Virus record (IMG/VR): IMGVR_UViG_2909303794_000011
Span: 1-51,950 of that record
Reading direction: 5' to 3' (one strand)
DNA length: 51,950 bases
DNA from: a virus
Lineage: Duplodnaviria > Heunggongvirae > Uroviricota > Caudoviricetes
Position numbers: made by a program. Position 1 is the stretch's first letter, and each line of letters starts with the position of its first letter. Shown here in pieces: positions 45,001 through 51,000 of this stretch.

Positions 45001-48000
45001 TTGAAGCGTTAATGCATGATGCAACAGAAGCGTATTGCCAGGACATTCCCGCACCACTGAAACGCCTTCTTCCTGACTATAAACGGATGGAAGAAAAAAT
45101 AGACGCCGTAATCCGTGAGAAATACGGGTTACCCCCGGTTATGAGTACACCCGTGAAATATGCCGATCTCATCATGCTGGCAACCGAACGCCGCGATCTC
45201 GGGCTTGATGATGGCTCTTTCTGGCCTGTACTGGAAGGCATCCCGGCAACAGAGATGTTCAACGTGATTCCACTGGCACCGGGCCATGCCTACGGGATGT
45301 TTATGGAACGTTTTAACGATTTATCGGAGTTACGCAAATGCGCATGAATGTTTTCGAAATGGAAGGGTTTCTTCGCGGGAAATGTGTACCGCGAGATCTG
45401 AAAGTGAACGAAACAAATGCTGAGTACCTGGTACGTAAATTCGACGCGCTTGAAGCTAAATGTGCGGCACTGGAAAACAAAATAATACCAGTGTCAACTG
45501 AACTGCCACCAGCAAATGAAAGTGTTCTGTTATTTGATGCTAATGGAGAAGGCTGGCTGATTGGCTGGCGTTCTCTCTGGTACACCTGGGGACAAAAAGA
45601 AACCGGAGAATGGCAGTGGACATTTCAGGTCGGGGACCTTGAAAACTTCAATATCACTCACTGGGCAGTAATGCCCAAAGCGCCGGAGGCTGGAGCATAA
45701 TGACCACATTTACCAATAAAGAACTGATTAAAGAAATCAAAGAACGAATCAGCAGCCTAGAGGTTCGAGACGATATTGAGCGCCGTGCTTATGAAATTGC
45801 TCTGGCATCGCTGGAAGAGGAGCCGGTGGCATGGCTGCATTCAGACAATGGCTTAGGTATTCCGGCAATAACCAGGAGCAAAAACATTGCTGACAGTTGG
45901 TTATCAATGGGCTGGTATGTTCAGCCGCTATATATAGCCAAGCCAGTACTGGTGGTGCCAGATGCTCGTCCGTCTTTAAATAATGGCATAGTCGGTTTTG
46001 ATGAAGGCTGGAACGCCTGCCGCGCCACCATGCTTCATGGTGCCAAACCTGTAAGCCAGACTTACAAGTTGAACAAGCTGTCGGGCAACTCTCCGGTAAC
46101 TCAGGATGGTTGGATAAGCTGTAGTGAGCGAATGCCGAACGATAAACAGTATGTTTGGTGTTGGGGTAAGTCTTACGGCTGGACTGAGTGCGATACCTTC
46201 GAAGGGTATTACGATTGGTCGAGAAACAAATGGTGGGCAGTTACTGACGATGGGGAAGAACCGGCATCGAAAGTAACCCACTGGATGCCGCTACCGGAGC
46301 CACCGCAGGAGGTGAAGTAATGAACAACTTAATGACAACTAAACAAGTCGCCGACTTCTGTGGCGTTTCAGTATCGACCGTTCTTCGCTGGAACAGCGTA
46401 AACAGGAGAACTGGCCAGAAATACAGGCCTGACTTTCCAGATCCTGATATTAAATCCTGCCCAAATAAATGGGCATCACGCAAGATATACAGGTTTGCTG
46501 GAGTTATTGAGTGATGGGTATTAGCTCATATCAGAACTAATACCCATCAATGACACAGAGCCAACTACCCACCCTGTGTCAGGGGCTAACTTTTAACACC
46601 ATAATTCACCGCTAGATAAAAACTGTATTGCATTGCACGAGCGGCGCAGCATTATCAGTTAGAGTGTCTTTACCTTGTTAGGCTCCACAGTTCGCACTGT
46701 CCAACGCCTGTCACTTTCACACGCTGCGCCTTCGAGAATATTCATTTAATCGCTGATAACGAACATCTTGCTCCAGTTGTGGAGCAGCTTGAACAATTTG
46801 AAGCAAGCATTGCCCCAACTCTCGAGGCCTCCAGTGTTGTTCGGCAATCACGGCATTCAGCAGGGATAGAGCGTCCGCAGGATATCGGCTGCAAATATCT
46901 GATTCTAGCAAAAGGCGAACGTCGTAGCTAAGGTGTTCGAGCGGTTGCAGCCAGTCCTGCACCACTGCCAAAGCCGCCGGAAATTCACCTCGGGCAGCAA
47001 TCACCATACGAGTCAACGATTCGGATATGCGTGGGGTGGCCAAGTTGCGGGACTTTGGCCAAACCTGTTGCCAAAATGGCTGGACACGATTTTTCCAATA
47101 CTCCTCGCGCTGATCGCCCGCACCTTCAAGTGCCTGGTATAACGCCTGCGCGGCTACCTCCAGACCTTCTTGTGGAAGAGCACTAATTGCCGTTCGGAAC
47201 TCCTCCACGGTATATCCCTCGGTAGGGCCCAGAGCTGCATAAGTCAGGAAAATAGCGAATTGCTGCCGGTGCTCGCCAAGATCAGAATAGTGATTGGCGC
47301 TCTCCAAAAAATCTGACTTGAAAGCTATCAGCAACGGTTCATACAGGCGTGGCGACCAGAGGAAGCCTTCCCACACAGCTTTTGCTTCGACGGGATTACT
47401 CCAAGCAAACAAGGGCAATAGATACTGTTCGGTCCAAGGTCGATCTACGCGAAAAAATGCGATCAGCCGCGACCCCAGCAACACCCGACCATGGCGGAAT
47501 AGCTCTATCTGTACATTACACAATTTGGTGAAAAGTGTTTTCAATTCAACAGGAAGCAAATCATTGTCATTCGGGTTCTGTTTGAACCATAGGGTGATCA
47601 GTGATTGCGTGACATGCCCAATGGGATGATTGATCGCCGTAGAAACAGGATCATAGGTCTCAATTCCGTTTCGAATGGTGCTAGACTCTGGGCTTGTTTC
47701 TATCATCAGAACCCGACGACAAAGGGCCAGTAGAATCTCCTCGTGGCAGAGGATGGTCTTCGAAGCCTCCTCCATCCACCAAGTGACAGCGTGGGAAATC
47801 TCCTGAAGTACTGCGTCAGGCATGTCAAGCACCAACGGTGCGGCGTACCGCCACGAACGCAAAATCATCCCTGGTTCAGCCCAAGTCTGCAGAGCTTCAC
47901 GCCACCGACCAACAGGCCACACATCATCTTGTGATAGTTTACGTAACGCATACAGACTGTGAAAAAAGCGCGTACGGCAAACATCACTCCAAGTGTCCTC

Positions 48001-51000
48001 ATAGAAAGGCAGTCTTTCTGGCATAGGCTTTGCGAGCCATTGCACTAATTCCTGCCACTTACGGGGCGCAATGTCGACATCTATACTCTCCTCGAAGCCT
48101 GGATCACCGGTTCCGCTCATCCAGTGAGAGAATTCATCACGCTCGTTGGTTGCCAGTTGCCATTTTGGGTATGCTGTGGATATTTCCGTCAAACGTGTAG
48201 CCGCAGACTCTCCCAAAACAAGGCCCGCTCCCCTGAGCTTCGCTAGACACAACCAGACGGAATGAGCCACCAAATAATGCCACCTGTCTGCTTCCAAATT
48301 ATCCTCGTACATCTCGCGCGGAGGCCCTGCCAAGATAGCAGTTTCCAGACGCTCTTGTGCAATTCCTGTCAGATGTCGTCCCTGCAAAACAAACAGTCTG
48401 AATACCTCTCGCCGAGTATCCGTGGCCCACAACCACCATGAACCGTCCTCTAACAACCAATTAACCCACCGCTCAGGTGGTATGCAGTTGTCTTGGCTTG
48501 CGGCAAACAGTGCCAGACGTTTGAAGGTGGGATATGGCAACTCAAACCAATTCTGAGCAATGCGCGAGGCCTGATCGCTGTCTTTGGCTCGAACGGCTAA
48601 CCATGAATCCCGAAGTAATTCAATCAGGCTCACCCAATCGCGGAACCCCCGGTTCTGCCAGTGCGGAGTGATGGACGGCAAATCCCAATGCGAGCGGTCG
48701 TGACGATCGTCGGACTCTCCCAACTCCCGCAACAAGTCCAGTGCATCACGCAACAACTGCTGAAAATCTTCCAACAGGTATGGCAAGGACGATTTCCATG
48801 ACTCGTCAGCAAGGTCGAACAGGGTTGAACGTACGTAATCAGCAGTCAGCACCAGCTCCCAATCCACCAATTGCTTGATTCGCAAGGGTTCATCAGTGCT
48901 GCTCGAATCGTCTTCACTATAGCGAAACGGCCGCCTCAACATAACCTTGGGAGAAAGCAACTCGCGTAACTCCAAGCGCAATGTAGTCGTCAAGCCTTCA
49001 TTCTTTAAGCGGTTTTGCCAACGATACAAATCCAGGTTCTGCAATGGCGATTTCACACGACCACTAAGCAGAAGCCGCCATAAAGTAGAAATAGGTGGAC
49101 CAGGAATAGCCAGGGGGGAATGCAAGAGAATTTCATCTAACTCAGAAGTCTTACGCTCCCGCATCAGTGCTGCTAAGCGATCTAGTTCGCTCTCAATCAG
49201 AAACATCCAACGGTCGTGTATTTGTCCGCCGCGTTCAGCAATCCATATGATCAACCTAGGGTCGCCCAGATAACGAACTAGCCAACGGGCTATATGGGAC
49301 ATTACGTCATCCCATTTGCTAGCACTGACACATCCAGAAACCAGCGACATCTGCGGGGCCAGCTCATAGGACGCAGGACGCTGAACCAGACTGAATCGGA
49401 GTTTCGGGTCAATTTCGACATGCGGAGATACACAAAAGCGTGGCAGATCGCTGTATTTAAATCGTTCGTCCGAGAAAGCTTTCAATAACCAATCCAGCGG
49501 CGGTGCAGGATTGAGTTCCGCAAAGCGTTTTGCTGGTAAACCTGATTTATCTGACAAGGCCCACAACATCCGACCAACGAAATCGTCCTGACGAGTGCTG
49601 TCCTGCGGGCGGGCCAGAGCATGTTTGACGACTATAGCCTCTTTGCCCTGTATACCATCTCGATAAGTATCTGCCCAAGCGTGCAACGTTTGATGCAGCA
49701 CTGAATGATCAGTGGAGCCCGCCGGTACGGTGTAAAGGATAGGAGTGACCCCTTTGGCCTCCCACTCGATGGCTTTCCGGTGCTCCTGCCCCGGCTCACA
49801 CTCCCCCAGTGCCCATACTTGTGGTGTGACTTCACCGAGCCTCCGATCTGCTGCAAGCGCATCCATCATGTAGCGCAGTACCGGGTCGTTGATGCTGTAG
49901 CCAACGAAGCAGACCACATAGTTACGAAATAACTCACTCACAAAGCGAGCTGCCCAACGCTCAGTGAGATAAGCCAAGCCAAAGTCACCGCTGGTAACAA
50001 CCAGACGATTCAGGGCAGTATCATCCGCCTTTTCCGGTAACAGCCCATGCAGGTATACAAGTCCATCCCAGCGGCTGTTTTTTGGAATTGGCAGCATCGG
50101 CGCTACATAGGCCTGAAAAGCCTGGCCTGTACGTTTAGCTGCCACATGAAAGAGACGGTCAAAGTTGGTAGTGACCAATCGAAGGGCACCCTCGCGGCTA
50201 CGGGCTAAACGTAACAGCGCCGCCTGAGTATCAATAGCGCCCCTACGACGGAGCCTTGGCTTAAGGGCTTTTTCCAACGCGCGTCGGACGGCTATACGCT
50301 GCCCTGGTAAGCGCCGTTCCAGCAAATCTAATGTGCCGTCAAATTGCCCACGCTCGAAAACCTCACGCTCAATTTCTGAAAGTGTTGTTCCGTTCCTCTG
50401 GTAAATTAGTTCTACCAACCCTTTGAAACCAGGTAAACCAGCAGGGTAGGAAATGCCTGCTCCACAGAAGAACACAACGCGCCCTTCCTCGTGCGCCTGC
50501 AAAAGCTCATCAGGAATATCAGGGCCGTTGGTAATGAATTGCATTCCTTTTCCTCCTATCCAATGTGCACGTTCATTCGAGTAAATGAAGGCAAGGGGTT
50601 ACATCTTATTATACCGACCGTGCAAATCCGGCTTCCTAGCAAGCTACTTTACTTGCCAACTCATAATGTCCGAACTCCGAACAAAGCGGACTGCTAGATT
50701 TGATTGCGTTCTAGCTACGCAAAATATCATTTCGAGCCTGAACGAGTACAAGTAACAATCGATTCAACTCTCTCCCACCATGCCTGGTAGGCTTTACGCT
50801 GTTCTTCTAGATAATCACTCTTGTCATAAACTTGCCATACACCTGGCAGTTTATGACCGAGCATTATTTCAGCAATATGAGGCGCAGTAAGATCAGAAAA
50901 GTTTGTTCGTGCTGTTCGTCTCAAATCATGAAGAGACCAATGAGGAAATTGATACCCCAAACGCCGCCATGCGTACTGCATTAAATTGTAAGGCAGCGAC

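Follow-up and report, generated by a model that had tools for sequence, protein, structure and literature searches.

The stretch of DNA considered here, called the window in the following, comprises the 51,950 nucleotides (nt) of IMG/VR record IMGVR_UViG_2909303794_000011 and represents a complete prophage of the lambda type, for which prfC is the integration site. Between its integrase and excisionase genes lies dsr1, which encodes a protein of 1275 amino acids (aa). This protein is defence-associated sirtuin 1 (Dsr1), which is known as an anti-phage system consisting of one protein. An earlier note made from the nucleotide sequence had described the gene as coding for a SIR2 protein of this length and had placed it among the single-gene defence proteins of the DSR type. 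The gene, its parts and its expression signals are arranged as follows.

46717-50544, minus strand: dsr1 coding sequence, an ATG-started open reading frame (ORF) of 1275 aa plus stop codon, RefSeq WP_052913475.1
49645-50544, minus strand: N-terminal SIR2 region (NADase effector), aa 1-300, assigned from Pfam and PDB matches and from motifs
49738-50178, minus strand: match to Pfam SIR2_2 (PF13289), aa 123-269, E=9e-23
50164-50166, minus strand: codon of Asn127 within TTNFD, a predicted catalytic residue, the motif corresponding to that of N133 in DSR2
50047-50049, minus strand: codon of His166 within LHG, a predicted catalytic residue, the motif corresponding to that of H171 in DSR2
46720-49644, minus strand: C-terminal sensor, aa 301-1275, all-alpha helical repeats, assigned from the AlphaFold2 (AF2) model, Foldseek and homologues
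50552-50557, minus strand: Shine-Dalgarno sequence AGGAGG with a 7-nt spacer before the dsr1 ATG, read directly
50608-50613, minus strand: TATAAT, a perfect -10-like hexamer without a good -35 element, 63 nt 5' of the ATG, the putative own promoter of dsr1

The ORF spans 3,828 nt and is uninterrupted. GAGIS is found at residues 28-32 of the protein, TTNFD at 125-129, LHG at 165-167 and GYSIND at 215-220, and when 25 homologues were aligned, all residues of these four motifs, N127 and H166 among them, proved invariant. The intact frame, the motifs and the strong ribosome-binding site of its own are thus present as they had been described. The C-terminal 1005 aa contain 4.4% tryptophan and 13.9% leucine, while tryptophan makes up 1.5% of the N-terminal 270 aa; together with the all-alpha AF2 model this composition agrees with the previous picture of about 1000 C-terminal residues rich in both amino acids and probably helical. 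As the SIR2_2 domain is matched with E=9e-23 and Dsr1 profiles score above 2000 bits, dsr1 is not a chance ORF.

The identity of the gene follows from full-length profiles. The PADLOC model for Dsr1 (PDLC02183) matched the whole protein, positions 1-1275 of 1275, with 2731 bits. The NCBIfam equivalog NF041818 ("anti-phage defense-associated sirtuin Dsr1", 1263 positions) reached 2054 bits over aa 1-1271, the curated cut-off of this model being 1400 bits. PHROGs holds a 1275-position profile as well, phrog_15208, which scored 3090 bits and is labelled "unknown function". SIR2_2 is the sole Pfam domain of the protein, and no Pfam domain was found past aa 269. The gene therefore carries the features by which Dsr1 is recognised: the match to curated models over the full length, a SIR2 domain in which the GAG motif and the catalytic Asn and His are intact, a helical sensor of about 1000 aa fused directly to SIR2 without a STAND NTPase, and a single gene without a partner. 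Both lines of evidence that had been proposed as a check, a SIR2 profile on the N-terminal region and a comparison of the whole protein with PADLOC, agree with the defence assignment.

Several other SIR2 families share parts of this architecture, and weak PADLOC matches to ThsA, SIR2 and LmuA models (E=4e-5 to 3e-3) could be taken to point to one of them, be it DSR2, Thoeris ThsA, SIR2-HerA, SPARSA or Avs5. These matches cover the SIR2 part only and remain below 21 bits, with 20.5 bits for ThsA1 (E=4e-5) and at most 18 bits for the SIR2 models, compared to 2731 bits for Dsr1. No Dsr2 model matched the protein in PADLOC at E<=1, no STAND NTPase domain was detected in Pfam at the same limit, and no Avs model appeared among the PADLOC matches. 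Moreover, profile scans of the protein and its neighbours revealed no SLOG, TIR, HerA, pAgo/APAZ or STAND NTPase domain. The features that define DSR2, ThsA, SIR2-HerA/SPARSA and Avs5/Avs7 are accordingly absent, and membership in one of these families is refuted, with a residual probability that is negligible.

A different possibility concerns the activity of the domain. SIR2 domains include deacylases, and the domain could regulate proteins of the host or the prophage, as a deacylase or an ADP-ribosyltransferase, instead of consuming NAD+. Weak matches to NAD-dependent deacylases were indeed found in NCBIfam and the PDB, but they are insignificant (E about 0.1-0.2) and restricted to the NAD-binding loop. 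Sequence and profile searches of the PDB returned sirtuins only (the KomC SIR2 NADase, SIRT3 and Sir2Tm), all aligned with the N-terminal NAD-binding region. KomC was the best match of known structure (aa 12-245, E=1e-4). The significant matches are those to SIR2_2, Dsr1, ThsA and the KomC NADase, and NAD+ depletion by DSR1 has been published, so that we regard a regulatory enzyme as highly improbable.

For the sensor, the searches of the PDB gave no sequence match, and the PDB holds no Dsr1 structure. Its AF2 model contains 55 helices and no strand of three or more residues. The mean predicted local distance difference test (pLDDT) value is 64 and the predicted template modelling score 0.42; over the last ~640 aa pLDDT rises to 70-90. 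A Foldseek search against the PDB returned generic HEAT/ARM solenoids only (karyopherins, CRM1 and CAND1) with template modelling scores of 0.14-0.23, and neither a DSR2 nor an Avs fold was among the top matches. The SIR2 region (aa 1-300), modelled with 25 homologues, reached a pLDDT of 46 and was unsuitable for a fold search; identities of 87-92% among these homologues, a level above that of the sensor, leave their alignment with little information. Within these limits the model supports a SIR2 domain followed by a long helical-repeat, alpha-solenoid-like sensor, as had been anticipated for the C-terminal part, whereas a bilobed TPR geometry would be beyond what a model of pLDDT 64 can resolve.

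Neither the gene nor its C-terminal part is new. The whole window is identical to positions 4255321-4307270 of Escherichia coli 14EC007 (NZ_CP024131.1), with 0 mismatches, and WP_052913475.1 is annotated there as "anti-phage defense-associated sirtuin Dsr1". RefSeq hence names the gene for exactly this sequence, and relatives have been studied experimentally. The earlier note had considered that the C-terminal 1000 aa might represent a new family; this did not hold, as they constitute the conserved Dsr1 sensor. It had also reasoned that a full-length match to a characterised family would remove the novelty and leave the defence call in place, and this is what the Dsr1 match does.

An exhaustive search with the sensor among 1.84 billion representatives yielded 2,771 clusters at 50% identity (E<=0.001), and another search, with aa 301-1275 alone, gave over 2,600 proteins. 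Nearly all proteins of the 120 closest clusters are about 1275 aa long and carry SIR2_2, the exceptions being three N-terminally truncated entries. Their sensors are 75-82% identical across Gamma- and Betaproteobacteria (Enterobacterales, Vibrio, Thauera, Ferrovum and others). In nearly every full-length protein among the best 150 of the 2,771 representatives, the sensor begins at about residue 300, and the eight of these 150 with atypical N-terminal lengths that were scanned all carry SIR2_2 (8/8).

In E. coli, dsr1 is present in 76 of 5,426 complete genomes, 72 of them with a full-length copy; all copies are chromosomal, and dsr1 is the name given by RefSeq. Carriers include enterotoxigenic E. 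coli H10407, O55:H7 CB9615 and NCTC9112. The very same protein is encoded on 39 public contigs; its 90% identity cluster has 418 members and is named Dsr1. One deposited phage, the Stx2c-converting phage LC727881.1, also contains the gene, which is unannotated there. At positions 643-8592 of this phage lies the module from int over dsr1 and xis to the early-left genes, with 99.5% identity to window 44000-51950. Lambdoid phages of the Cdt-I/Cif type and of the Stx type therefore have the dsr1 module in common.

Compared to six other E. coli alleles, the allele of the window differs at 2-10 aa, none of them in the catalytic motifs. Its Arg1239 (codon 46828-46830) is replaced by Gly in all six near-identical E. 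coli and phage alleles examined. R97K, S392P and I485M are recurrent differences which separate it from most of the six. A clustering of allelic differences in the sensor, as would be expected in an arms race, was considered and rejected, for identity to the GF153 allele is 91% in the SIR2 region and 94-96% in the sensor. In strain CUVET18-789 (NZ_CP115312.1) dsr1 is split by the insertion sequence (IS) IS1203, and in strain 2013C-4974 (NZ_CP027587.1) it is cut to 42%. The "SIR2 family protein" of strain GDSC2227PM (NZ_CP135595.1) matches over the first 569 nt only, with 86% identity, so that its SIR2 domain is possibly joined to another C-terminal part.

These disrupted copies bear on the question whether dsr1 of the window could be an inactive relic, that is, an ORF which looks intact in a partly decayed prophage and has lost its defence function. 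The prophage does show decay: an IS3 element has inserted into the lysis region, rusA is a pseudogene, and small genes are fragmented. A full promoter consensus was also not found upstream of dsr1. On the other hand, the 3,828-nt frame is open throughout, the catalytic and NAD-binding residues are intact and invariant, alleles with at least 99.6% nucleotide identity are found in 67 genomes of diverse lineages, and a strong ribosome-binding site is combined with a perfect -10 hexamer. We therefore consider a loss of function very unlikely.

What is known of the function comes from homologues. Dsr1 and the protein EcDsr1 (WP_029488749.1) reportedly go back to Gao et al. 2020. A DSR1 was shown to defend and to lower NAD+ during infection, and mutation of N133 or H171 in DSR2 abolished defence (Garb et al., 10.1101/2021.12.14.472415). 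In E. coli ECOR17, Srikant et al. reported that deletion of dsr1 restores infection by a T4 derivative, that MG1655 is protected by the ECOR17 gene on a plasmid together with the 300 bp in front of it as native promoter, and that T4 nrdC.5 counteracts Dsr1; T4 lacking nrdC.5 is blocked (PMC9391042). A 2026 preprint, in which 73 phage genes were screened, reports that only the major capsid protein of phage ZL19 (Drexlerviridae) made EcDsr1 toxic (PMC12803255). According to the same study, co-expression of EcDsr1 with its trigger leads to cell death, effector mutations abolish toxicity as well as defence, and EcDsr1 protects against few phages only. Its authors described the Dsr1 sensor as homologous to the bilobed TPR-like sensor of the STAND protein Avs7; they described capsid recognition as shape-based, on the HK97 fold, and considered alternative activators possible (PMC12803255).

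Taken together, we propose the following mechanism. The N-terminal ~300 aa would form a SIR2-type NADase with Asn127 and His166 as catalytic residues, which the all-helical sensor of about 975 aa would keep switched off. Newly made major capsid protein of an infecting phage would bind the sensor and thereby turn SIR2 on, NAD+ would be hydrolysed, and without NAD+ the phage would fail to replicate. The fate of the cell, death or recovery, appears to vary with the homologue and the phage. Because dsr1 has its own ribosome-binding site and probably its own promoter in an exchangeable slot, it can be expressed in the lysogen, where it would protect the host and hence the prophage. Given the near-identity to other E. 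coli alleles (2-10 residues, none catalytic), we infer that the allele of the window would behave in the same way. We assign a probability of roughly 0.88 to this reading as a whole, namely a sensor-gated SIR2 NADase that is triggered by capsid protein and encoded by a cargo gene of the prophage between int and xis.

Some points weigh against it. The experiments concern homologues, and a like behaviour of this exact allele would be an extension from them. The tested EcDsr1 (WP_029488749.1) is not among the seven allele accessions compared, and no ECOR17 genome appeared among the matches listed; near-identity to these tested alleles is thus presumed from the uniformity of the E. coli alleles (2-10 aa, six alleles). 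In Bacillus subtilis expressing the DSR1 of Garb et al. and infected with phi29, NAD+ loss was transient, growth went on and the culture did not collapse (10.1101/2021.12.14.472415), although this DSR1 may be a distant homologue. The capsid protein as trigger goes back to one preprint, the structure models are weak (pLDDT 64 for the sensor and 46 for the SIR2 region), and a promoter scan upstream of dsr1 found no full sigma-70 consensus.

The trigger is also the part of the mechanism for which an alternative has to be weighed. A functional Dsr1 NADase could respond here to another phage protein, to nucleic acid or to a metabolic perturbation. The capsid evidence comprises a single preprint, one allele and one phage, the preprint itself allows for alternative activators, and ECOR17 Dsr1 restricts T4 only in the absence of nrdC.5, and the T4 capsid protein is not of the T1 type. 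However, the sensor is 75-82% identical across Gamma- and Betaproteobacteria and the E. coli alleles differ from each other by 2-10 substitutions; this strong conservation makes a different specificity of the present allele unlikely. We consider a non-capsid trigger improbable and retain the capsid-triggered NADase as the preferred explanation.

The second part of the argument concerns the site in which dsr1 resides. It is bordered by the following features.

46565-50702, no strand assigned: variable cargo cassette, dsr1 with its 5' and 3' flanks, delimited by breaks of homology to relatives with other cargo
46320-46514, plus strand: excisionase of 64 aa, the last early-left gene, phrog_1553, E=8e-36, positions 1-64 of 65
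50727-51950, minus strand: tyrosine integrase of the P4 type, 407 aa, Pfam Phage_integrase, Arm-DNA-bind_3 and Phage_int_M, phrog_1

The dsr1 gene lies downstream of int in the same direction. It is convergent with xis and the early-left genes on the plus strand (yfdP/Q/R and the DUF551 gene), and here the earlier description was accurate. Homology to relatives ends at 50703-50731, around the int stop codon at 50727, and resumes at 46564, 50 nt beyond the xis stop, or at 46514. From these break points we conclude that a cassette of about 46565-50702 is exchanged, in which dsr1 is the only gene. The integrase is found at an identity of at least 95% in about 700 E. coli genomes, at the same site and always beside yjjG/prfC, and dsr1 is present in about 75 of them.

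Nine relatives were sampled (loci L009-L012 and L014-L018), and their slots contain eight other cargos. Two relatives carry a CHAT protein, identified as BovA of Borvo (802 bits). The remaining cargos are an anti-phage dCTP deaminase (547 bits), an HNH protein of 868 aa (WP_086625076.1), a three-gene cluster coding for a hypothetical, a STAS-like and a further hypothetical protein (L017:6022-7931), and four different sets of hypothetical genes, among them those for proteins of 331 aa (WP_021539736.1) and 413 aa (WP_052993680.1). For the HNH protein, the STAS-like cluster and the 331-aa and 413-aa proteins PADLOC matches were absent or weak, and we list them as candidates for new defence genes. 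The accessory nature of the position between xis and int, which had been suggested from the single locus, is evident from these exchanges and from the sharp bounds. The int-xis slot of lambdoid prophages integrating in prfC is therefore a sharply bounded defence hotspot. At least three single-gene defence systems that bear a name (Dsr1, Borvo and the dCTP deaminase) and several uncharacterised cargos replace one another in it, which makes it a convenient place to seek new defence genes, even if the material is only mildly new. No direct repeats flank the cassette and no Rfam family was found in 46300-50800, so there is no sign of transposition or of an RNA partner. Cargo is probably exchanged via recombination in the conserved int and xis flanks.

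The flank next to xis shows some features of its own. An inverted repeat with arms of 16 nt, 94% complementarity and a 6-nt loop begins at the xis stop codon within the conserved flank (46512-46549), and a short GC stem with a T-run follows on the plus strand at 46572-46594. These two stem structures may be terminators or retroregulation elements which end the early-left operon. The excisionase matches Pfam HTH_17/MerR below threshold; it is unannotated in the RefSeq record of 14EC007, and its homologue in strain C4 is described as "DNA-binding protein" only. The neighbouring DUF551 ORF (45700-46320, 206 aa) is intact in the window and has been split into two pseudogene fragments by RefSeq.

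The structural module of the prophage is about 95% identical to those of lambda, phage 21 and PhiR63_2, and the usual lambdoid genes are annotated in RefSeq. At the left end of the window (1-5298), where the GC content is low (about 0.40), lies virulence cargo.

1-573, minus strand: cdtC, virulence cargo
570-1391, minus strand: cdtB, virulence cargo
1388-2209, minus strand: cdtA, with a different start in RefSeq
3333-4184, minus strand: cif, a type III secretion system effector, virulence cargo
4408-5298, minus strand: nleH, a kinase effector, virulence cargo

Among these left-end virulence genes no PADLOC matches were found. One prophage thus bears a toxin, two effectors and a defence gene, and it represents one more virulence-converting prophage (cdt-I, cif and nleH) equipped with an anti-phage gene. 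A similar lambdoid phage that converts its host to Cdt-I production was reportedly described by Asakura et al. 2007. In the lysis region an IS3-family element with a frameshifted transposase is located at about 29627-30839, where neighbouring small genes are split, and rusA (about 37750-38139) contains an internal stop. The prophage may therefore be impaired for lytic growth.

A capsid-sensing defence gene within a prophage raises the question of self-tolerance. The capsid protein of the resident prophage (window 19381-20409) is of the gpE type (PF03864), and its sequence showed no detectable similarity to that of the T1 capsid protein (E=2), so at the sequence level there is no reason to expect self-triggering upon induction. 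As recognition is reportedly shape-based on the HK97 fold, self-triggering may nevertheless occur. One could go further and assume that the Dsr1 sensor also recognises gpE capsids, that the gene then mainly serves the exclusion of one prophage by another, directed at incoming lambdoid phages, or slows the lytic cycle of its own prophage once this has been induced, in addition to defence against phages of the T1 type, and that the slot is a hotspot of defence exchange whose unannotated cargos (the 868-aa HNH protein, the STAS-like cluster and the 331-aa and 413-aa proteins) are new defence genes. This extended scenario is a speculative one that we hold to be unlikely, and defence of the lysogen against infecting phages stays the preferred role of Dsr1. 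In any case, the prophage offers a natural setting in which to ask how a capsid-sensing defence tolerates the capsid of its own prophage.

Among other systems, DSR2 of B. subtilis 29R resembles Dsr1 in the N-terminal SIR2 domain, with N133 and H171 corresponding to N127 and H166 here, in the long C-terminal alpha-solenoid sensor and in NAD+ depletion by a single gene. In contrast, the reported trigger of DSR2 is the tail tube protein and not the major capsid protein, and DSR2 is inhibited by DSAD1. Besides the lack of a PADLOC match to Dsr2 at E<=1, DSR2 chains did not appear among the PDB sequence matches. Avs7 (SeAvs7) is described as having a homologous bilobed TPR-like sensor which binds the HK97-fold major capsid protein (PMC12803255). 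It differs from Dsr1, which lacks an NTPase, by its STAND NTPase and by other effectors such as the Cap4 nuclease. The best 150 of the 2,771 representatives have the layout of Dsr1, and the eight of them that were scanned carry SIR2_2; a sharing of the sensor with non-SIR2 effectors (Avs7, HEPN or others) is neither confirmed nor contradicted by these best matches. ThsA of Thoeris and KomC possess related SIR2 NADase domains. However, they are short proteins which need partners or signals, ThsB and a SLOG domain in the former and the Kongming system in the latter, whereas the SIR2 domain of Dsr1 is fused to its own sensor. In SIR2-HerA and SPARSA a short SIR2 protein is encoded beside a HerA ATPase or a short pAgo-APAZ protein, while the neighbours of dsr1 are int and xis. 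EcDsr1 and the Dsr1 of ECOR17, finally, belong to the same family as the protein of the window: the family consists of single-gene systems of 1275 aa in which SIR2 is followed by a helical sensor of about 975 aa, and at this level no difference was detectable.

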